Source: Schmidtea polychroa (taxonomy: Eukaryota). From it: 64,000 bases of DNA. Positions within the stretch are counted from its first letter, which is position 1; every line of letters begins with the position of its first letter. Of this stretch, positions 327 through 64,000 are shown piece after piece. Where the stretch lies: contig CM097885.1 in assembly GCA_044892525.1 (NCBI GenBank), positions 35,218,001 through 35,282,000 on the forward strand, written 5' to 3'. Both the position numbers and the translations under genes were made by a program. A model generated the notes under the pieces. The model saw only the letters and a program-made list of their open reading frames with translations, did not search any database and was not told the origin of the DNA.

Positions 327-920
327 TCATAGTTCGAAGGGCTTCAAGTATAATCCTTTACCATTTTTAGTTTTACAAAGGCATCCATTCTTTAAAGATT
401 TACATATTTTTTTTAAATCTTCTTTATCTTTTGAAGATAAAGATTCAGATGTAGAAATTTGATTTTTTAAAAAATCATTTAAACCTCTACCTTTATAAGG
501 ATCAAGATAGAGACCTTTGCCCTGAGACTTTTGCCGACTCCCCTCATATGGATTAAGATAGAGACCCTTTCCAACGGACACTCCCCCTTTAGCTTGCCCT
601 ACCTTCTTCATTGAATCGATTTCAGTTTGTAGTTTTTCTTTTTCTAGGTCTGTCTTTTGAGATTCTTTAGCTTTTTGAACTGTAGTTGCAATTCCTCCAG
701 CTATTCCAGCAGCACCTGATAAACCAGCAATGATTGCAGGTATTAAAGCAGCTAATGGAAGAATGCCACCTTCTTTAGCTTCGTGGAGCTTCGCTCTAAC
801 TTGTTCTTTTACATGTTTTCCAATAAAATATTTTTTACCATCAATTACTACTGATTTATTTTTATTTGAATTTATTAATTCTTGCAGAGATTCTTCAGTA
901 GAGGAACTCTTCGAGGTCAT
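327..920 (-). CDS. Adenovirus pX/mu-like virion core or membrane-active protein of the Polinton
   Basis: KEGG-ILPLAALIPAIIAGLSGAAGIAGG resembles adenovirus pX (GG-ILPLLIPLIAAAIGA) after a GG adenain-type cleavage site; three GKGLYLxP(Y/F) repeats. Confidence 0.65.
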   Translation of the reverse strand: MTSKSSSTEESLQELINSNKNKSVVIDGKKYFIGKHVKEQVRAKLHEAKEGGILPLAALIPAIIAGLSGAAGIAGGIATTVQKAKESQKTDLEKEKLQTEIDSMKKVGQAKGGVSVGKGLYLNPYEGSRQKSQGKGLYLDPYKGRGLNDFLKNQISTSESLSSKDKEDLKKICKSLKNGCLCKTKNGKGLYLKPFEL

Positions 921-935
921 TTTATAATAAACAAA

Positions 936-1726
936 ATGGATATTTGGAAACCAATTTTAAATAGACATAAGAGTAAATTTAATAATAAAGTATTTCCTGA
1001 TAATTTTAGATTATTAATTGTTGGTTCTTCTGGATGTGGAAAGAATGTACTTGTTTTGAGAATGTTACTTGAAGATGATTTTTTAGATTATAATAATTTA
1101 ATCTTTTATTCTACAACCATAAATCAACCAGAATTACAACTTTTGAAATGTGGATTTGAAAATAAATTAACTAAAAAAGCAATAATTGATATTTTTAAAA
1201 ATCAACATTGGTGTCCTGAAGAAGTTTTTCAACCTTGTGATATGGTTGATTGGTATAAGGAAAAGATTTTAGAATCAGATATTAGTAAAAAAATGATTAT
1301 ATTTGTGAAGAAGGGCAGGAGGCAATTCAAGTTTTATTCTCTAATAAACCTGAAGATGTTTTACATTGTGATTTACTTCCTAAAGATAAAAAGAATCTAG
1401 TTATATTTGATGATGTTGTTAATATGAAAAATCAAGAGATTCAAAAGAGTTACTTTACACGAGGTCGACATAATAATTGTAATGTTATTTATATATCTCA
1501 AACATATTATGCTTTAGATAAAAATTCAATAAGAAATAATTCCAATTGTTTTATATTTTTTAAATTAGATCGCCGTGATAAGAATATGATTTATAATGAT
1601 TTATTTTCAAATGTTGAACCTGATAAGCAAATGTTTGATATGTTTGTTGATAATCATTGGAAAGAAAAATATAATTATATTTATTTGGATAGAGAAGAAG
1701 GTGAAATATGGAAAAGTTTGTTTTAG
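936..1726 (+). pseudogene. Polinton DNA-packaging ATPase (A32/FtsK-HerA class) with one frameshift
   Basis: Walker A GSSGCGKN. Adding one A to the A7 run at 1287-1293 gives ...KDKKNLVIFDDVVN (Walker B) continuing into the 1424-1726 ORF with RGRH, ISQ and IRNN motifs. Confidence 0.88.
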
Positions 1727-1737
1727 GGCTTGTCGAC

Positions 1738-3123
1738 TTAAAAATCTGTTTTCTGTAGTTCATTATTATAAAATCTACCTAATATTTTTTCATTATTTAA
1801 ATCAAAGATGCTATATGTTATTGGAGTTGTATAATGTATTTTATTTATAATAAAAATTTCATTTGTCCATTTTGCTGTGAATCCTTTTTCAAATTTATTT
1901 TTATATTTAAATATTCTTACTCGGTCACCAATTTTAAACTTTGGTTTTTCAATAACATCATTTTCAATATTTACCACTTTAATGGTTTCAGGCTTCATGG
2001 AAGCATTTAAAGGTGTTAATTTTATAGAACTATGTACATCATTATTATATTCATTTACAATCTTTTGTAACAATTCATTGTTCCATTTTTGTTTTCCAAT
2101 AGCAGTAAAATATTTCCACATTTTATTTTTTAATGTTCTATTTAATCTTTCAACCACGACTGCTTTTCCTTCGTTTTCTGTTGAATATAATTTAATATCA
2201 TTTTCATTTAAAAACTTTGTAAAAACTTTGTTATAAAATTCTGTTCCTTTATCACACCATAAATATTTTGGGATTCTTTGATTTTCTTCAAATATATTTT
2301 CAAATGCTTCTGTAATAGAATATCCTGTTTTATTTTCTAAACATCTTGCAAAAGCAAATCTTGTATATAAATCTATTACAGTTAAAATTATTTTATATTT
2401 TTCAGGGTCTGATGATTTGGGCATAAAGACTAAATCTGCAGACCATGTTTGATCTTTTTCATGTACTTGAACTTTTAAATATTTTTTATTTTTTCTAAAT
2501 TCATGGTGTAATTCCTTTGCATATTTTATTTCTGATTCTGTTGGGGTTTGTAAACTAGTCTTGGCTGTACTCTCGAGGGATCTTTCAATCTCTGCTTGTT
2601 CGATAATCTTTTTATAAGCAACATCTTTTGCTTTCCTAGGAAGTCTTGCACCCATGGTGATCGGACTGTGTCCTAAGCCTATGAAAATCTTACCTTTCAT
2701 TGCTAATTTAACTAGAGCTCTTTGAATCTTTTCTTGGGTTGATGGATTTTCAATATTATTTAAATCATGAATTAAATTTACATCTGCTACATGTCTATCT
2801 CTAAGATTATTTGAGTTGTATGCAATGTCATGTTTTAAAGCTGCTTGATCAATTCTATTAATTGGTTCTTCTCCAGGTTTGGGATTATTATTTTCATCTA
2901 ATCTAATATCCAATCTTGTTCCTGGTCCAGTATAGTTGTGTTTGAATAAATGTCTTTCACCTGGATATTTTTCAGTAGTAAAGGGTTTTAATATTGAAGA
3001 TGTTGTTTTTGAAGATTGTAGATCGCCTCCTGTATGTTTTTTAGTTTTTAAATGACTTGCTTTATGATGTCTTGTAACTTGACAATTACAAGTTTCACAT
3101 CTCCAATATTTATTTAGAGACAT
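1738..3123 (-). CDS. Fusion ORF: C2H2-type zinc finger, parvovirus-VP1u-like phospholipase A2, rve/DDE integrase
   Basis: CETC..H..H; NYTGPGT and DQAALKHDIAY (Ca-loop and HD dyad); WSADL, WCDKGTEF and VERLNRTLK (DDE); KFKIGDRVRI..W C-terminal domain; no chromodomain. Confidence 0.88.
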   Translation of the reverse strand: MSLNKYWRCETCNCQVTRHHKASHLKTKKHTGGDLQSSKTTSSILKPFTTEKYPGERHLFKHNYTGPGTRLDIRLDENNNPKPGEEPINRIDQAALKHDIAYNSNNLRDRHVADVNLIHDLNNIENPSTQEKIQRALVKLAMKGKIFIGLGHSPITMGARLPRKAKDVAYKKIIEQAEIERSLESTAKTSLQTPTESEIKYAKELHHEFRKNKKYLKVQVHEKDQTWSADLVFMPKSSDPEKYKIILTVIDLYTRFAFARCLENKTGYSITEAFENIFEENQRIPKYLWCDKGTEFYNKVFTKFLNENDIKLYSTENEGKAVVVERLNRTLKNKMWKYFTAIGKQKWNNELLQKIVNEYNNDVHSSIKLTPLNASMKPETIKVVNIENDVIEKPKFKIGDRVRIFKYKNKFEKGFTAKWTNEIFIINKIHYTTPITYSIFDLNNEKILGRFYNNELQKTDF

Positions 3124-3152
3124 TTTAAAATGTTAAAATATCAGGGATTATA

Positions 3153-4445
3153 TTAAGAATCTCCCCTAACATTTTCGATTATTGAAATCTTTCCACCATA
3201 TAATTTCATTTCTATTTTCTTTTCTTCTAATATTAATGTATATACTTTAGCTTTAAAATTAGAATCCTTTGTTACATGAAGTGTAACATCAACATTATTT
3301 ATGTTTAATCGATCATCTTGGTCTGATACATTTATACAAAATATAGAATATAAATTTTTGAAATCTTCTAAACTTAATTGCGGTTCAACTTTGAAATCAT
3401 AACATGTTTCAATATAATTTAGATATGGGAATATGTTTTCATTATTTTCAATATTAAATTCCATTCTATTTATTGGATAATAAGAACTATTTAATTGAAT
3501 TTGGATTGTTTTTAAATTATCATCTCCAATCTTTTGAATAAATAGATTGTTATTTTTTTGGAAAGATGAATCTGTTTCTTTGAATCCAATCAAGATATAT
3601 CTTGGTCGGTATGCTAAATTTGCTACCTTTATAGAATATGTTGAACCCTCTGTCATACTAAATTCACTACAGATTCTATTTAAATAATTTACATTTATAG
3701 ACTTGTTGGAATTTAATCTTTCAAGGAGTTTAATCTCAGAATGTGGGTTTAATGTCCATTCAGGTATATGTAATTCAAGTGTTGATAATTTTAATTTAGC
3801 TTTTGTATCTACAGCTCCATAGAACAATCTTTTATCACCTTCTACTCTATTACAGATGAATTCTATAAAAACATTATGAAGTATACGATTATAGTTTTGA
3901 AGGAATCCAAACAAGTGTTTTAATTCAAAATAACCTTCAAATTTTTTAGATTTATAAAGTTCAGCTCTTTTATGGTAACCATGGTTTACATCTAAACCAT
4001 CTTTATCTAAATCCCCTTTATTAACATCAGGAATCCAACCTGTTAATTCACCATATTCGTTTTTATAATCACAACCAGTCAAAATAAAATTTAACATTGT
4101 AGAATATACTCCCGGATGCAAAACAGTTTCAATTTCTGATGATCCTAGTTTTAATCTCATGTTGGAGAATAAATTTGGAAAGAAATTATTTTCTAGGGTT
4201 ATATCTTTGTTTGCTTCAATTTCTAATTCTACTTTGTAATATAATTTGGCATTACAAATATCTATTGGGTTTGATGTTTGAAGAGATTGAAAAACTATAT
4301 CACCCCTACGATTTAAGTTTGCAATAGATCCTGAAGTTGGGGAGATTTTAAGTACATCATTTTTCTTGATTTCATGAGTAAATTCTTTATTATAATCAAG
4401 ATTTAATTTATTTTTTTCTTGAATTTTAAGATTTATATTATTCAT
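3153..4445 (-). CDS. Polinton major capsid protein (double jelly-roll, hexon-like)
   Basis: Intact 430-aa beta-rich ORF with LNxxGDIxF, LENNFFPNLFS, ELKHLFGF and PRYILIGF motifs; lies next to the integrase and ATPase. Confidence 0.8.
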   Translation of the reverse strand: MNNINLKIQEKNKLNLDYNKEFTHEIKKNDVLKISPTSGSIANLNRRGDIVFQSLQTSNPIDICNAKLYYKVELEIEANKDITLENNFFPNLFSNMRLKLGSSEIETVLHPGVYSTMLNFILTGCDYKNEYGELTGWIPDVNKGDLDKDGLDVNHGYHKRAELYKSKKFEGYFELKHLFGFLQNYNRILHNVFIEFICNRVEGDKRLFYGAVDTKAKLKLSTLELHIPEWTLNPHSEIKLLERLNSNKSINVNYLNRICSEFSMTEGSTYSIKVANLAYRPRYILIGFKETDSSFQKNNNLFIQKIGDDNLKTIQIQLNSSYYPINRMEFNIENNENIFPYLNYIETCYDFKVEPQLSLEDFKNLYSIFCINVSDQDDRLNINNVDVTLHVTKDSNFKAKVYTLILEEKKIEMKLYGGKISIIENVRGDS

Positions 4446-4501
4446 TTTTATATATTAAAATTTACACACACACAATAGGATTAATTAAATATATTTTGTA
4501 A

Positions 4502-23035: not shown

Positions 23036-52506
<29,471 letters not shown>

Positions 52507-54469: not shown

Positions 54470-54764
54470 GTTGTATCAAATCGAAACTTATATATATTTT
54501 ACATTTATCAACCAATCAGAATCATTTGGTATTAGTATAAATAAAACATTATATTTTAAATTATTGTAAAAATGTCGCAAATAAATTTCATTGAAAACCT
54601 GGTAAATGAAGTAATCAACAAGATCATTATCGAAAGCCTCAGTTTCCTGATCGATCGGACCGAAAATATTATTGAAGGCAACCATAATGATTACGACGAT
54701 ATACTGAATACGGAATGCCTTGAAACAAAATGTTTTATTTTAATAGAATATAATAGAATGTAGA

Positions 54765-54806
54765 ACAGATTTAGGTATTATAATTATAATAATAATAATA
54801 ATAATA

Positions 54807-54857
<51 letters not shown>

Positions 54858-54875
54858 TTAGGTAAAGAATTCTAC
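54765..54875 (+). mobile_element. Tiny Polinton integrase fragment (TDLG|KEFY) with a microsatellite intron
   Basis: ACAGATTTAG|GTATT..(AAT)n(ATT)n..TTTTAG|GTAAAGAATTCTAC, matching 62897-62992 on the minus strand. Confidence 0.7.
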
Positions 54876-57115
54876 TGTAATGTAAAGCGATTTTTGTTAA
54901 TATTTTAGTGTTCACAATTAGGAATTGTGAATACTAAAATATAAAATGCCACCATCTGGGAAATCCAGATTTTTAAAAAAAAAACTATATAGCGATAATT
55001 TACTATAGTAAATTATAGGAAATAAAAAAATCGAAAGAAATTGAATGATTAATTATATGTCTTCAAAACTTCTATTTGTAAGTTCAAATGCTAAACAAAT
55101 TTGATAAAGAAACTGAATTAAGAAATTGAATTAAGAAACTGAATTAAGAAATTGAATTAAGAAACTGAATTAAGAAATTGAATTAAGAAACTGAATTAAG
55201 AAATTGAATTAAGGAACTGAATTAAGAAATTGAATTAAGAAACTGAATTAAGAAATTGAACTAAGATACTGAATTAAGAAATAGAATTAAGGAACTGAAT
55301 TAAGAAATTGAATTAAGAAACTGAATTAAGAAATCGAATTAAGAAACTGAATTGAGAAATTGAGTTAAGAAGCTGAATTGATCCAAGTAGTATTATTTTT
55401 ATTTTGTTCAGTAAACGTGTGATATTATTTGAATATTGTTGAATATTAATTTTGTTTTTTATTTATTATTGTTACATCACATAACACAGCCTGCACCCCG
55501 ATTGTCCCGCCACAAGTTTTAACGGAGACTCTTTCGGGCCCATCAATTTTCTTATTAAACATACAACTTAACAATTAGTGTCAGAAGCAAAGCAAACACA
55601 ACACGACACTCGCATTCGACGTTTTCTTTCAATCACGAAACCGTTCAGTATAGTTATTATAGAACTATAAAGGCTAGTGACACTGTTGGCCGAACACAGT
55701 AGGCCATACCCTTCAAACAAACCACTATTTTTTTCGCACAACAAAGCAATAAAAAAAACAGCAACAAAACAATTGATGGCGTCAAATCAAACAAATCCAA
55801 CAAATATTCCACAAATACCCAACAACTACGATAATACTCAAACACCTGAAAGCACAAATTACTACTACAACCCAAACACCAACCCAGAAAACACACATAC
55901 CATTAATTCAATAATCAACCCAAAAACAAATATCCTCAAATATTTCACAGATGACAACGGAACACCGCAAAAATGGTTAGAATTCGCGAAACTGACCCTA
56001 ACGCTATCGGGAGTTAAGTCAACAAAATCCCTATGCTCCAACATAATAGCAGCACTACCAAGCAACAAATTAAACGAAATCGCCGATCAAATCGATGAAA
56101 TATCAAAAGACGACGACCCTTTCACCAAACTGTGTAACCTATTGACCAACAAAAACAAGGTCAACAGAAGACTCCTGAACAAAATAACAGAACCTGACAG
56201 CTACCCATTACCGATAATAAAAGACATAATAAATCGAATAAACGGCGCAAAATATTTTTCAAAAATTGACATACAAAAAGCATATCATCAGATCCCAATT
56301 AGAAAAGAGGACATAAAAAAGACAGCAATAACAACACCGATCGGCATGTTCGAATACAACTGAATGCCTTTCGGCCTACGAAACGCCGCAGCAACTTTCC
56401 AACGATTCATGGATCAAACAATGAAAAACAACAAAAACACAATCGCTTATCTGGCCGACATCCTAATAACAAGCCCAGGCAAAGAAACACATCTAAAGGA
56501 CGTGGAAAAAGTGTTCGAAACGCTGGACAATGCAAAACTAAAAATAAACACTCAAAAGTGCGAATTTATGAAAACGGAAATAAATTTCCTTGGTCATACG
56601 CTAAACGACAAAGGAACACAACCAATAGAAAACAAAATAAACAATATAAAAAATTACAAATTACCAACAAACACAAGAGAATTGAGAAGATTTTTGGGAA
56701 TGGTAAACTTTTACCATTCTTACATCCCAAATTGCAGCAACCTACTGGCACCACTAAACGACATTATCAAAACCAAACGAAACGTAACAATAAACTGGAC
56801 ACAACAAACAACCGACACATTCAATAAAGCCAAAGAAAGCCTATCAACGGCAACACTACTCGGTTACCCAGATCCAGAACTAGAGTGTCAACTAACTACA
56901 GACTGTTCTGGTTTTGCAATGGGCGCAACAATTTTCCAGGAAAATAAATTCGGCAAACAACCACTGGGATTTTTCTCGAAAAAACTAAAATCACATCAAA
57001 CAAGATACTCAACATTCGACAGAGAACTCTTAGCAATACACGAAGCAATCAAACACTTTCAACATTTAATCGAAGGACGAATCTTCAAGATATACACGGA
57101 TCACAAACCGCTAAC
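54876..57115 (+). mobile_element. Truncated Ty3/Gypsy element: 5' LTR, gag remnant fused by deletion to RT-RNase H
   Basis: TG start; PBS-like TAGTGTCAGAAG near 55578; DSYPLP, KIDIQKAYHQI, MPFGLRNA, YLAD (broken YxDD), TDHKPL; stop at 56361; cut off at 57115. Confidence 0.85.
55108..55380. repeat. Tandem 13-bp repeat, GAATTAAGAAA(C/T)T (26-bp higher-order unit), inside the LTR
   Basis: About 20 adjacent units with alternating C/T and no spacers. Confidence 0.9.
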
Positions 57116-57662
57116 AGTAGGGTAATGTGTGGAGACGGGAACAAAGACATACGACGTCATACCCCCACCCCCGGGGGAGGAGGGGTTTAAAATTTTTTTT
57201 TTAAATTACGTAACAAGGACATATGACTCATCAAGGTCATTGAAACAAAGACATATTGCATAACAAAGGAAAAAATTTTGAACAAAGACACATCATACTT
57301 TTTAAATATATTACGTTGCGGTATTTTAAAATTTAATTATATTTTAATTATTAAATATATTACGTTGCGGTATTTTAAATTTTAATTATATTTTAATTAT
57401 TGAATATATTACGTTGCGGTATTTTAAATTTTAAATTTTAAAAAACTTATTTTGACGATTAAGTTGACAAAATAAAATTATTGCACATACTTTGTATATA
57501 TAGTCTATCAGACAAGATATTCTGTCCCCCTATGGTCACACAAAATGTATAAAAATATTATTAGTGTCCACACATGCAACAAGTTAGTGTTCTCATCGAT
57601 AGCTCATCTTAAAGTCTAGTATAAGATCTATCTATTGATATATTATAATAATAATAATAATA

Positions 57663-57710
<48 letters not shown>

Positions 57711-58042
57711 CTATATACTCCGAGTCTATCCGACAAAATATTTTGTCCCCCTATGGGTACTGCTCACAAGGGTAAAGGTCACAAAGGTAAAGGTCACAAA
57801 TGTACTGCTAAAAATATTCAAGACAAAACTTTAACAAAGATATTATACTTTAAATATACACTAAAATTTATTAACACACTGGGTAAAGGTCACAAAGGTA
57901 ACTAATGTATTATTAAAAATATTCAAAACAAAACTTTAACATATTATTATTACACACAATGTATAAAAAATTGTTCACAAAGTTACTGTTAAAAATATTC
58001 AAGACAATAAGATCAATACATTTATTAAATAATTTAACCACA

Positions 58043-58460
58043 TCATCGAAAATAATCATGTCCAAAATAATTATCATCTGCTGGATCATGGAAATCATCT
58101 GTATCATCTGCTGAGATAGCTTCCGTTGAATCTATAAATATATCGGTGTCACCGCCCCTATAATGGCAATATGCCAAACTTTGATTTTTATCCACCCAAT
58201 TTCGCTTATCATCTCTACATGTCAAGGCTCTTTTATTATTTTTAATACTAAAAAGTTGGTGATTTTTTGACGTTATTCTAAACTGAGGGACTGTGTATAT
58301 TTTATCATTTAAATAACAATCTAGATACGACTGATGTGTTAGTCCAGTATCTTTCATACTTATCCCCTTAGCCTTCATACTTTCCTAATCACCCATCAAA
58401 CTGTAACATTTAGGTCTCAAGAACACCCAATCTTTATATAATAACCCTTTATTCTCGTCA
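58043..58460 (-). pseudogene. Protein-primed PolB C-terminal fragment
   Basis: FLRPKCYS*..KAKG..ITSKNHQLFSIKNNKRAL..DDKR..SLAYCHY. Confidence 0.85.
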
Positions 58461-58520
58461 TAAATGAATAAATCTTCTTTTCATAAGTTTCTTTATAATC
58501 TTCTTTTAATTATTATAATA

Positions 58521-58559
<39 letters not shown>

Positions 58560-59283
58560 ATTGTTTAAAAAACTTAAAAACCTCAAAAACGTATAACAAT
58601 AAATAAATACTTACATTTTCCTCCTTTCGAAAGAAATTTTCCAGCATCAGGACCAGCAGAAGTATTTATTACATTTCCATCTAAAAGCACAATAAAAATA
58701 ATAATGATAATAAGAGTAAACTATTACCATTTATTCTATTCATGTCTACAGCTTGTCCGTCGATATTCATTTTAATTTGTTGATTAGTACCTAATAATCA
58801 TATTAAAAATAATAAATTTACCATTAATTCCTCCAACGATCTTTCCGTCAACTCTTTGAATATTGTTGTTGTTGTTGTTCATGTAGTTAAATATTGTTAA
58901 TAGATTTTTAAAAGTGATGAAAAAATGAAAGTGTAGACTATATAAGAGAGATATTACAGGTTTTATTAACCGACCAATGAAAATAGAGATAGGATAGGAA
59001 AAGACACTACATGTTTGTTTATACAAACCATGACGAAATAATGACCTTTACATGTCTTTATTACTCAGTGCTTTGTTACTTTGCACTGTGCATGCACTGA
59101 ACATGTAATAGTATTACATAATAATTTTAAACATAAAATTTAACAAATAATATTTTAAACATAAAATAATAATATTTAACAAATAATAATAATATTTAAC
59201 AAATAATATTTTAAACATAAAATAATAATGTTTAACAAATAATTAAAATAGTCATCAAATAAAAATCATACAGTATACATTTA

Positions 59284-59630
59284 TTAACCATCAAATTCTT
59301 TATACAACAACCATGCCAAACAGTGTTGACCACATGTTTGAGTCAATGGATTTTGAAACATAGTTTTATTATATACAATAGGTTTCCCAATTGTTTGAAG
59401 TTTTGATATCAATAAAGCAGGATAATAGAAACCCATAGGATCGAATACGAATATATTACTAGGTTTCACATATATAGCTATCAAATGTTCTCCACCAAGA
59501 TGAGACGAATGAGTATTGACAATTATGGTTTGATTATTGCTCAAATAAGGAATTTTATCGAGAGGAAAAACTCCTACAAATTCATTTCCTAATATTTGAT
59601 TTCCAATTCGATTAACCTGCACAGAACTAT
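59284..59630 (-). CDS. Adenain-like cysteine protease
   Basis: FVGVFP, IVNT, GEHL, FDPMG, Q..TCGQHC (H-D-Q-C order). Confidence 0.88.
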
Positions 59631-59696
59631 TTTAATAAAATTAAACAGTAACAAAAAACCTTACTCCATGACACCTTTTTGTGTTTCTGTATACAT

Positions 59697-60919
59697 TTAT
59701 ACTAGCACTGTTCTATTTGCAGTAATTTGAACTTCATTTTCAAATACTCCATATATTATAACATGTACTGGTTCTGTAATGGCCTTTGCAAACTTAATAT
59801 CCAGTCGTAAATTCCCGTTTTGTGGTAGTTGACTCTGATTTAAATCAAAATCGGGAGCTAAAACAAATGTGAAAAATGGATATTTGCTTTTAAATTCTTC
59901 TAGAGTTATTCCGCAATTCAAGTTTTTATCTAAGTAACCCAGATTTCTAACAATACTCTACATATATGTCGCACAGTAATTATCGCTTTCGAAATCTTGA
60001 GTATATGTTTCTCTATAATCAGTATTTTTGGACAAAGTCAATGAAGTAACACCAAAATTTTGAAAATTGAGCTGGAAGCAGTATAAGATCCATTATATTG
60101 CGTTTCACTTTGAAATGTTACCAGAATAAAATTAGGCATTCTTCTGTCACCAAATATTTGTTCTTTATAGAATGATGAAGCACCTTTAGCAATAGCAAAT
60201 TGTACAATTTCCTTTGTTTTTAATGGATAAATTGCATGTTTTGAATTAAGACCCAATTGATGACCAGCTAATACTGACGGGTCTACTCGAACTCTTCTCA
60301 CCAATAATTTTGCATCAACTAATTGGCATATTGGTGCACCAGTTGCACTAGTAAGACATAATGCAGAATCGGACCTTTTCAATCTAATGTGTACATTAAC
60401 TCCTGGTAGCAAATATTTCGGTTGATCCATAATATCAAGTTGTAATGATGAGCACATAGTGAATGATTTTGAGCCTTTAACCCACTTTTTTCTTTCATCA
60501 TCTGTTGCTGCATAACTCATAGGTGTAAGACAGGTATTTTTAGTATCGGAATTGTAATTTAAAATAGTTTCTATCAAAGCCTTGTGAATGAATGTATTAT
60601 TTCCGCCCTCAATCTTAATATTATTAAATCCCAACACTGCATCTTTAAAAAGAGTATGAAACATGAAATTGTTTGGTATTACATCTGCATTGGCATCCAA
60701 AACTTTTCTATCTTTATCTACAACCTTGATCTGAACAGTCAATAAATTATCGTTCAAATCTAAATATTCAGTTTGCGACCCATTAATATAAAACTCGATA
60801 TCATTTCTACTATCGGTAATTGAATTCATAGGAAAAACTTCCTCAAATACCCCAAATTCTATTACAGCTTGAGGCGATGGTCTATCAAATATATATAATT
60901 CGGATTTACCACAAATCAT
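59697..60919 (-). pseudogene. Major capsid protein, frameshifted near 60060
   Basis: KSELYIF..Q, IEFYING..EYLDL, QPKYLLPGV..L.RS and C-terminal GNLRLDIKF..VIIYGVFEN; split over two ORFs. Confidence 0.85.
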
Positions 60920-61278
60920 TTTGCAAATATAGTTCCATGTCCTTTCATTAGTTTGTTTATACGCGATATTCCATGTCTTTTACGTTTTGGAGCTGGGGCT
61001 GGAGGCGTATCTTTTTGAAACATACCAGCAACTCCAGGTCGAACCTTCCCTAACTCAGCTAAAGCATTTGTTTATAGGGATGGTAATATTTTCTGTTCAT
61101 TCATAATAACATCTTTTGCAGTTTTCATACCAAAACTACCAATACGTTTAAGAATAGGAAGTGCAAATCTCCCTATTGTTTTTAACCAACCTGATCCGTA
61201 CTGTTTACCAATAAAATATGGTAATTTACCGCCAGATTGGCTATCACTATATATACTAATAATATCGGAATTAGCCAT
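60916..61278 (-). pseudogene. Cupiennin/pVI-like amphipathic virion protein with a premature stop
   Basis: QSGG..F.G.QYGSGWLKTIGRFALPILK; after TAA at 61072 the frame continues to a basic tail whose stop overlaps the capsid ATG. Confidence 0.65.
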
Positions 61279-62290
61279 CTACTTTACGAAAATGTAGTGT
61301 CAAATGAGTTTTTGAGTCTTTTGGGAAGTTTATAAGTTTTCCACTATCATCACGAATATTTATTTCTATATTGTTTATACATGAGCTTGAAATTGGTAAA
61401 TACATGGGATTATCTATATTTATATTGACAACTTCATCATGTTCATATTTTCCAATCCACACCGATTTCAATAGAGGAACACTGGAATCACCAACAATTA
61501 TAGGCTCAATAATATTAGTATATATGAACATTTGTTGATGATGTTCAAGTATTCTTGGTTTACGTATACCAGCCGATTTTTCCCGATATTGCTGCTTCTC
61601 TAATCCAAGTGTATTTGTCAAATTTTTATCAAATGTAACTTCGCCTATATCATCATTCAAACTGAATGTAAATAACAAATCTTTCACAATGTCCAAACTT
61701 TTAAATATGTGTGAACAATTGTGAACAATATTTAAGTAACACATCAAGTTTATCAATATATAATTCGTCAGCAAAGGTGAATGATTCTTCAACTTCATTA
61801 TTATACGACTCTGATATTTTGATTTCTTCTCTCATTACACTGTTTGCTTCAAATAGATCAAAGCGTAATAAATATTCTGTTTCCAAAACTTCATTTTTCA
61901 ACTTATTGCAACCCAATCGTTTGGCATCTTCAATATAGTCGAATGTTATTGTAAATGGTTTAAAATCACAACTGATATTTAATCCATCCTTGTAAAACAT
62001 AGAGCAATGCTGATCTAATATTTGATTCGGAATATGATATGTTTTATCATAATTACGGATAATAAAGATACCGCTACATGTTTTCATAGCATTCCTTTTG
62101 AAATCAATCTTACATTGACTATAAAATGGGAATGTATTGTACACTAATGTAAAATCTTGCAGTGCAACTTCCCAGTCACCATTTAAAGAAATCGGATTCT
62201 GGAGATTGACCATGAATTTACTGGCTTGATTATCTGGATGAATAAGCGGGCAACTATTGCTTGGTAAAATAGTATAAAAATTCACTTTAC
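61271..62290 (-). pseudogene. Minor capsid (penton-like, single jelly-roll), frameshifted near 61710
   Basis: FYTILPSNS..PDN..S.F..L..PISL.GDWEVAL; MFIYTNIIEP..VGD..VPLL; YLPI..INNIEINIRDD.G. Confidence 0.82.
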
Positions 62291-62914
62291 TAGATCCTTT
62301 TCTGATATACATGATGGGTTTTGATAACTATGCCATTTAACATAATATTGTTTATCCTTGCCGACCTTTTTAGTTTTCAATATCTTTTGAATTCTAAATA
62401 CTTTTGGGGGAGGAATAACTTGTAATTCTTGCTCATAAAACTTTCCTTGTACAATATTGTTATCATAATCACTGATGACATACATTACAGGATTCTGACT
62501 AGTATTTATTTTTGAAATTACAAAGACTTCATCACTCCAATTTGTATCGAAATTTTTAATAAATGGTGATGCACTAATTTTACTAATTCTAACATGGTCA
62601 CCGACTTTATATTTAGGTTTTGCAATTTTTACAGATTTCTTAGAAGTCAATGATGTTTTTGATGTAATATCAACCGGTCTCAATCCATTCAGTCCTCGAT
62701 GTGATGAATGATTATAACTTGTTATTATTTTCGGTAAAGCATTTACCCATTTTTTATTACCTTGATGCACGAATAATTTCTTTAATCTCTCTCTCAATGT
62801 TCTGTTAAATCTTTCAACGTGGGCAGCTTTGTATTGAGAATGTACCGAGTAATGGTTTATTTTCAATTTATTGAGGATTTCCTTGACTTTACTGTTGTAG
62901 AATTCTTTACCTAA

Positions 62915-62982
<68 letters not shown>

Positions 62983-63195
62983 CTAAATCCGTTTGCAAGT
63001 TATTAGGATGTCCATCTTTAAATAAATCATTAACAGCTTTAGACATTTCATCTGCAGATTTTGCCTTGACGGGTATTGCTCTGGCAAACTGACTGAATAC
63101 ATCAATACATGTTAAAATATATTTATACCCATTGTTAATTTTCGAATAGGGTATCATCTCCATCAAATCCATTTGCCATAAATCATGGTAAAATA
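62282..63195 (-). CDS. Polinton rve integrase with C-terminal chromodomain, 5'-truncated, containing a putative 72-nt intron (62911-62982)
   Basis: DLWQMDL, CIDVFS, LQTDLG|KEF, VERFNRTL, FRIQKIL..YYVKW. Confidence 0.88.
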
Positions 63196-63205
63196 TTAGT
63201 TGTCT

Positions 63206-64000
63206 CGCGTCTGTGTGCGCTTTTTTCTTTGTTTTGGTTGTGTGCGCACACAGACGCGTAAAATTAAAATGTAGAAATTTTTAATCCGATCCTCGCGTCT
63301 GTGTGCGCTTTTCTTTTCTTTGTGTTTGGCTGTGTGCACACACAGACGCGAGCAAGAGGTAAGTTGTTAATCTTTTAGATTTTAGATTTTTATCGATTTT
63401 GAATTTGTTAATTAGAGTTGGAATTTTATCGACGTTTGGAATGAATGATGATTAATTTGAATACATGTGGCTATTGCAATAAAGAGAGTTGTTAAAGATG
63501 GCAATGGAACTCGAGTTGTTGAACTCTTATGGATTTGGTTTTTCGTTTTGTATTATGAGCTTCCGATTAAAGATGGCAACATCTAAATATAACGGGGGAT
63601 TGATGGTTCTCGGTGATTTAGTGGCAAGGTTGAATAGAACCCGCAGCAAAATGGAAATAGAAACTATTTGTAAAGACGATGTTATCAGATCTATCAAATC
63701 TATTAAAATTCTGGGTAATGGATTCTCTCTAATCACATTTTCTCGAGACCGGCAATTAGTTCAATCTGTACCTGAGCAAAATGGCCGAATCGATATTGTT
63801 TTGTGTTCAGAAAGGAATAATATGAGATCAAATTTATGTGTAGCTACACAAAGACAGGTTCCAGATAAAATGATTGAGAAGAGTTCAGCTACAAGATTGT
63901 TTAATATTACTGAAAGTACTGGAAGTGTTATGACTGGTATGATCCCTGATTATCGATCTCAAGTATGTCGTGCACAAATGGAAGCAGCTCGATTTAGATA
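63206..64000 (+). pseudogene. Hairpin-leader chimeric unit C: SNF8/VPS22 fragment fused in frame to a proteasome alpha-1 (PSMA6) fragment; runs off the window
   Basis: Two leader hairpins and a donor at 63359. Open frame from ATG 63573: NGGLM..DDVIRSIKSIKILGNGF..LVQSVPE, then VATQRQVPDKM..LFNITE..VMTGMIPDYRSQV.RA..EAA. Confidence 0.8.

Follow-up and report, generated by a model that had tools for sequence, protein, structure and literature searches.

A decayed Polinton/Maverick element in the DNA analysed here, a stretch of 64,000 nucleotides from Schmidtea polychroa that we call the window, has its integrase gene interrupted by an insert of ATT repeats that begins with GT and ends with AG (site A). 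A second insert of this kind, with the same immediate flanks, lies 8 kb away (site B). We think it probable, on balance, that the insert at site A is an intron of a Polinton integrase lineage, lying at a proto-splice site, that its microsatellite content is secondary, and that site B is a patch copied in the course of repair.

The history that we propose would run as follows. A lineage of Polinton integrases would carry a phase-1 GT-AG spliceosomal intron at the AG|GTAAAG sequence formed by the codons for D-x-G-K-E. This intron would originally have been short and ATT-rich, like the other putative introns of the element, and slippage would have homogenised it to (ATT)22 in the dead copy of the window, or in its sub-family; active copies would need the host spliceosome to make their integrase. 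Site B would be a junction patch of about 110 nucleotides, taken from an intron-bearing integrase copy and inserted in unrelated DNA, most simply by templated insertion or by repeat-initiated conversion in break repair. Splicing, the DNA behind the relatives, the succession of these steps and the way in which site B arose are each things that we infer.

The insert and the integrase around it

The coordinates of the features are collected in Table 1. The insert of site A sits in phase 1, inside the glycine codon of the TDxG-KEF motif of the integrase. A stop-free frame, 62282-63280, spans it, and the insert is there translated as 22 isoleucines, a leucine and a glycine: since the frame is open through the insert, there is no stop codon that would make splicing necessary. 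Once the insert is left out, the flanking frame is continuous. A preliminary description of this DNA had reported a 72-nucleotide GT..AG insert next to a catalytic aspartate, with TTAGGTA at both ends. Length and content are exactly as reported; the aspartate ahead of the insert aligns, through the relative P0002, with the ‘LQTD’ aspartate of a solved integrase core; and the repeat, present at each end, is really one base longer, eight base pairs that read TTTAGGTA.

Pfam recognises in the frame an integrase core (rve, E 5.9e-6) and a chromodomain (Chromo, E 6.6e-4), both under the curated cut-offs, and the downstream part of the integrase scores 339 bits against a profile of 119 relatives. 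In AT-rich DNA, the codons for D-x-G-K-E spell the proto-splice site AG|GTAAAG. The 3' end of the insert is T-rich (TTTTAG); its branch candidates are repeat-derived nTnAT words, with no clear branch-point motif otherwise. The insert is unstructured (folding z +3.4), so that its ends would be open.

Table 1. Positions of the features in the window
Feature	Position	Strand	Remarks
Site A insert	62911..62982	-	72 nt, GT(ATT)22TTAG; candidate spliceosomal intron
8-bp direct repeat, donor-side copy	62980..62987	-	
8-bp direct repeat, acceptor-side copy	62908..62915	-	
Integrase, upstream surviving part	62983..63184	-	about 68 codons
Integrase, downstream part	62282..62910	-	remainder of core domain and chromodomain
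Decayed Polinton/Maverick with site A	57116..63184	-	putative left end near 57116, where a Ty3/gypsy RT frame adjoins
Major-capsid-like gene, double jelly roll	59700..60979	-	frame change near 60040 and in-frame stop
Adenovirus-type protease remnant	59284..59631	-	Peptidase_C5, E 7.2e-5
Three stop-free mini-exons, 61, 63 and 66 nt	58615..58882	-	putative polymerase leader, upstream of the polymerase-like remnant
Mini-exon gaps, phase-1 GT-AG	58791-58821; 58681-58727	-	31 nt; 47 nt
Foreign sequence in place of integrase 5' part	63185..63998	+	two-copy palindromic motif and intronless EAP30/proteasome-alpha mosaic frame
Site B patch	54765..54875	+	about 111 nt: 10 nt of integrase-like left flank, insert, 14 nt of right flank

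The host element

The element resembles animal Polinton/Maverick elements of the adintovirus-like kind, in which a retrovirus-like integrase with a chromodomain stands beside capsid-like and protease genes. Inside the 64-kb window, it has one putative Polinton end only. Its capsid-like gene is close to clusters in which 10% of the members carry PF21738 (Atlas 0.98), and matches spider F54H12-type proteins with a tblastn E of 3e-22. A short piece near 58050-58500, for which Pfam gives no match at E<=1, may, judging by its motifs, be a remnant of a protein-primed B-family polymerase.

The two gaps between the mini-exons of the putative polymerase leader each contain five ATT words, the background being 0.05 per nucleotide, and the 47-nucleotide gap starts with GTA and ends with TTTAG. 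A third leader donor lies at 58614, ahead of an (AAT)n tract at 58509-58562.

The site A copy is dead: native sequence gives way to unrelated sequence at 63184/63186, and the copy is thus unable to make a full integrase, spliced or unspliced. Other copies of the family, seen in contigs of four public runs, continue past this point into the native integrase N-terminus. The palindromic motif of the foreign sequence has copies at 63204-63350 and at about 34704-34805. Both at 63185-63998 and at about 34704-36620, the motif and a GT donor are followed by a frame with EAP30 and proteasome-alpha parts, and a Prp19-like piece stands about 1.5 kb further; the database model P0075 has a Prp19-like piece fused to the C-terminal half of an integrase.

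Of 24 public runs listed, 20 contain part of the stretch, and there is no RNA run among those listed as containing it, a listing that says nothing on expression. The integrase family is very abundant, with 11528 contigs in run X1. The comparison of contigs with the window, made on the four runs, bears on sequence outside 62905-62990, the interval that holds the insert and its junction; dips of depth beside site A and contig ends nearby were set aside as uninformative. In the run contigs, copies of the family have many internal deletions, several of them with 10-40 letters of AT-rich filler, which suggests frequent end-joining repair with templated inserts.

Relatives of the integrase

A search with the integrase frame yields 2223 relatives at E<=1e-20. 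Among the 120 near-full-length relatives listed, 119 are continuous through the motif (117 by pattern, two by inspection), the exception being P0075, from which that part of the protein is missing, though such a search selects unbroken records. The exits described below are those of protein records.

The closest relative found, P0134, has 61 of 68 residues identical and is sister to site A with support 92/92. After TDLG, it continues with 17 non-integrase residues and then ends: six of the first eight are isoleucines, a richness found in 3e-4 of the 8-mers when the window is read at random. In P0123, its cluster mate, TDLG is joined directly to the C-terminal tail, which reflects a deletion or else a gene model built on the donor. 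Two further records, P0152 (from JGI) and its cluster mate P0176 (from Logan), end in TDLG-KIII, and P0127 ends in TDLG-N; the three form one clade, with support 99/96. Translation that runs on into a G|GTAA.. donor produces just such endings. The residues after TDLG thus vary from relative to relative (Lys-Ile-Ile-Ile, Asn-end, Ile-Asn-Ile-Ile-Ile-Phe), and, because the relatives start their insert with different residues, the pure ATT repeat of site A is suggested to be secondary.

How often should a record leave the frame at this codon? Of 28 short close rows, one without the aspartate was left out; seven of the remaining 27 exit at most one residue from the motif, where 0.7 would be expected (p 3e-6). 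After collapse to lineages, the count is 4 of 24 (p 0.003), and 2 of 24 lineages have non-integrase residues after the glycine (p 0.12). Among short rows of distant families, 4 of about 52 exit there (p 0.04, computed for 51), and the DxG site may, given these distant exits, be a hot spot of breaks or of gene prediction in general. All these p-values assume uniform breakpoints, a simplification. On a tree of 25 rows, from which P0123 (no different from P0134 in the stretch compared), P0170 and the more distant rows were omitted, the exit label requires 2 changes against 4.7 after shuffling, and one shuffle in 500 is as low; a single origin of the exits is recovered in just 8% of the bootstrap trees. 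In a preliminary quick tree, the sisters of P0154 and of P0170 are both continuous. The endings of P0127, P0152/P0176, P0154 and P0170 may also be contig ends or nonsense changes.

Three Polinton integrases, L007, L008 and L009, are found on short contigs in three prokaryote genome bins, and these contigs are probably eukaryotic contamination. In the DNA of L007 and L008, of which the identity to the query is respectively 63% and 56%, the insert is absent, and L009 is interrupted by other sequence one codon before the DxG site. A pattern scan of metagenome contigs for an insert of 55-85 nucleotides between duplicated ends gave six loci, all of them in unrelated bacterial genes, and three scans of viral contigs gave no relative.

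Further away, 10 of 146 distant representatives leave the integrase at the DxG codon. All belong to one family, and seven of the eight looked up are spider gene models: a splice-site model therefore sees a donor at this codon. The source of these seven is Trichonephila clavipes. The models that join the DxG donor to other sequence (P0203, P0210-P0212, P0217, P0223, P0229, P0248, P0259 and P0305) reach capsid-like, protease-like, ATPase-like and other downstream Polinton genes. The idea of an adenovirus-like splicing from a common leader, which these models bring to mind, was set aside: they are annotation models only, and probably prediction artefacts.

We favour an intron of the lineage because of the isoleucine-rich exit of P0134, the clade of P0152, P0176 and P0127, the excess of exits and their clustering on the tree; because the putative leader of this element contains two GT-AG gaps, both of them phase-1 and ATT-rich; and because the DxG site is donor-like in distant Polintons and the insert of site A is unstructured. 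The claim that the insert is inherited within the family, made in the preliminary description, is thus backed by the exits of P0134, P0152/P0176 and P0127 and by the leader gaps. It finds no backing at site B, which is no copy of the integrase.

Site B

The insert of site B, 54775-54861, is 87 nucleotides long, with GT...AG ends, an interior of (AAT)7/(ATT)16 and the same 8-bp repeat as site A. The two sites agree at 9 of 10 nucleotides on the left flank and at 14 of 14 on the right. The chance of both matches is about 1e-15 (12 trials, base frequencies of the window), and coincidence is excluded. The sites differ by the wobble base of the threonine codon and by the content of the repeat.

The preliminary description saw here a second integrase fragment. 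Its 87-nucleotide GT..AG insert, with repeat content of its own and common flanks, is there, and the integrase is not: tblastn at the site finds six integrase residues only, with an E of 53, and comparison with the profile of 119 relatives gives -4.2 bits, no significant match. Beyond the common core, the right flank has no likeness to site A above controls (a score as good is reached by 487-517 of 1000 window segments). On the left, a weak likeness extends over about 40-90 nucleotides (5-26 of 1000 window segments, and 14-46 of 1000 shuffles, score as well). That the lengths of both inserts, 72 and 87, are multiples of 3, as had been remarked, is true and counts as one observation instead of two, since slippage of a trinucleotide repeat would preserve length modulo 3.

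Site B lies just past a plus-strand frame of 63 codons, for which the Atlas has no match, and about 300 nucleotides upstream of a gene on the minus strand whose start resembles a signal peptide. A position inside an intron of this gene was considered and dropped: the gene seems to start at the signal-peptide-like methionine near 54470. Contrary to site A, site B folds back on itself (z -5.4). In this fold, a 6-nucleotide word to the left of the common part pairs with the last six common bases on the right, possibly the trace of a template switch.

From its sequence, site B reads best as a patch copied out of an insert-bearing integrase copy, a very old integrase remnant being a possible alternative. 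An error of assembly or polishing, in which misplaced repeat-rich reads would have given one site the insert or the flanks of the other, seems to us very improbable. In its favour, the common part consists of a microsatellite and 10-14 nucleotides, and the sites are 8 kb apart. Against it stand the differing wobble base and repeat content, the absence of these flanks at the five other AAT/ATT tracts examined, and the independent record P0134, with its isoleucine-rich exit at the same codon.

Three tracts in or near the element, 54776-54857, 57641-57708 and 58509-58562, change from AAT to ATT units. This switch makes them form fold-backs, which the other AAT tracts examined mostly lack. Between site B and a gypsy element, at 55107-55379, lies a 13/26-bp tandem array of 21 units.

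Origin of the 8-bp repeat

There is nothing unusual in the microsatellite itself or in the 8-bp repeat. The latter is not diagnostic of a duplication, since an exon junction TTTAG|GTA around an intron with the ends GTA and TTTAG reproduces it; the 47-nucleotide leader gap of the same element has exactly such ends. Gain of the intron by duplication of an AG|GT site around an (ATT)n insertion, as proposed in the preliminary description, is therefore possible without having support of its own: any GTA...TTTAG intron yields the same repeat.

In its full form, that proposal makes the insert a young intron, spliced and inherited, and site B a decayed member of the family. We find it doubtful. It accounts for the 8-bp repeat and the pure repeat filler, for the degenerate run of isoleucines with which the read-through of P0134 opens, and for the weak likeness of the left flank at site B, and its mechanism is established in principle, going by the available text of PMC3443670. 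However, integrase at site B is limited to about 8 codons, and the right flank drops from 14/14 to background. In relatives at 74-81% identity, the frame is already broken at this codon and what follows starts differently, so that the insert looks older than its pure repeat. The same text also tells that, in Drosophila, gained and old introns are equally often flanked by repeats (PMC3443670), and the repeat does not discriminate between the two.

There is also the possibility, which we regard as unlikely but worth weighing, that the insert is never spliced. Eight base pairs would have been duplicated by a staggered break, or by a non-LTR element of which nothing but the (TAA)n tail is left, leaving repeat filler in a dead copy or in a non-autonomous sub-family; GT..AG ends follow automatically when an AG|GT is duplicated, and the other exits at the codon would each have arisen by an accident of its own, at a site prone to breakage or resembling a donor. 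Of 10 microsatellites examined, only those of sites A and B have a perfect 8-bp repeat flush with the ends of the tract, three others having matches of 5-6 nucleotides only, set back from the ends. The death of the site A copy, the deletions with filler letters in which the family is rich and the continuity of the majority of relatives through the motif fit such an accident, and new inserts in Daphnia are described, in the accessible part of PMC4202315, as bordered by staggered-break repeats of 4-12 bp. On the other hand, P0152 and P0176, diverged and from different sources, have a common KIII ending and group with the differently ending P0127, which an inherited, diverging intron fits better; other intron-like gaps exist in the same element; and the splice consensus predicts the 8-bp repeat too.

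A last conjecture, bolder and in our view improbable, would have the intron both born and spread within the family: an ATT seed at AG|GT would have become spliceable, then moved by repeat-initiated conversion through a family of thousands of Polinton copies, spilling exon-intron-exon patches such as site B into host DNA.

Taken as a whole, the preliminary description was accurate in what it observed at site A and mistaken about integrase at site B; of its interpretation, sharing within the family gains support and an origin by duplication is left without evidence of its own.

Comparison with known systems

Intact vertebrate Mavericks are described as devoid of introns, as far as the text at hand goes (Barreat and Katzourakis 2021, PMC8097293). 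Contrary to them, the lineage of site A appears to have an intron in the catalytic motif of its integrase, as well as a putative spliced leader of the polymerase. Ginger1 DNA transposons are another known case: the portion of Bao et al. (2010, PMC2836005) available reports gypsy-like integrase genes with 1-4 introns, mostly GT-AG, at positions common among families. Here too the integrase gene of a DNA transposon is interrupted by a GT-AG insert, but Ginger1 elements are simple cut-and-paste transposons, with no capsid or protease genes.

That introns can be gained at AGGT proto-splice sites, through tandem duplication, through the insertion of a transposon or in break repair, is presented as established in the excerpts available (Yenerall and Zhou 2012, PMC3443670; for Daphnia, PMC4202315). 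As in the known gains, the insert of site A lies at AG|GT, is surrounded by a short direct repeat and leaves the coding sequence otherwise unchanged. Contrary to them, its filler is a pure trinucleotide repeat, its gene is of viral type, and its direct repeat is inseparable from the splice consensus. Introners have been found in maverick-polinton-like proviruses of dinoflagellates, according to the consulted part of PMC11957031. The likeness, within that same text, is that host-type introns enter Polinton-like elements after integration. Introners differ in being mobile families at many unrelated sites, while sites A and B both keep integrase-derived flanks: within the 64-kb window, no copy of the insert was found at an unrelated target, the sole other occurrence, site B, having the same flanks. 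As for length, modal introns of about 32 and about 58 nucleotides are given for one flatworm in the available pages of PMC4040987. De-repression of Polintons in PIWI knock-down libraries of planarians is reported in PMC8532177.

The accessible portions of PMC10748475, PMC8502044, PMC12220804, PMC9356565 and 10.64898/2026.07.28.741278 report no spliceosomal intron in a Polinton integrase. More broadly, a literature search over main texts, with few subscription papers, gave no intron at the DxG motif and no microsatellite-derived Polinton intron; entries of the Repbase type could hold one.

If the intron is real, this Polinton lineage needs the splicing machinery of its host to produce its integration enzyme, and gene callers blind to introns would record the integrase as two broken halves, as the fragments in databases suggest. 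A family with a very high number of copies in one genome would let the gain, loss and transfer of an intron be mapped on a tree. If birth and spread within the family were true, the gain and transfer of an intron could be read from one copy to the next, with the output of integrase tied to host splicing.

Neighbouring elements

The window contains other mobile elements. A Ty3/gypsy gag-RT element with an internal deletion occupies 55671-57125, and its RT/RNase H frame abuts the putative left end of the Polinton near 57116. Another Ty3/gypsy element, at 24402-29418, has breaks in its frame, yet its 294-bp LTRs are 99.7% identical, so that it must have been inserted recently. A second, different Polinton, at 327-4454, has a pVII-like frame, a frameshifted packaging ATPase (Pox_A32) and a double-jelly-roll capsid; its integrase carries an N-terminal phospholipase A2-like domain, and its DxG motif is without insert.
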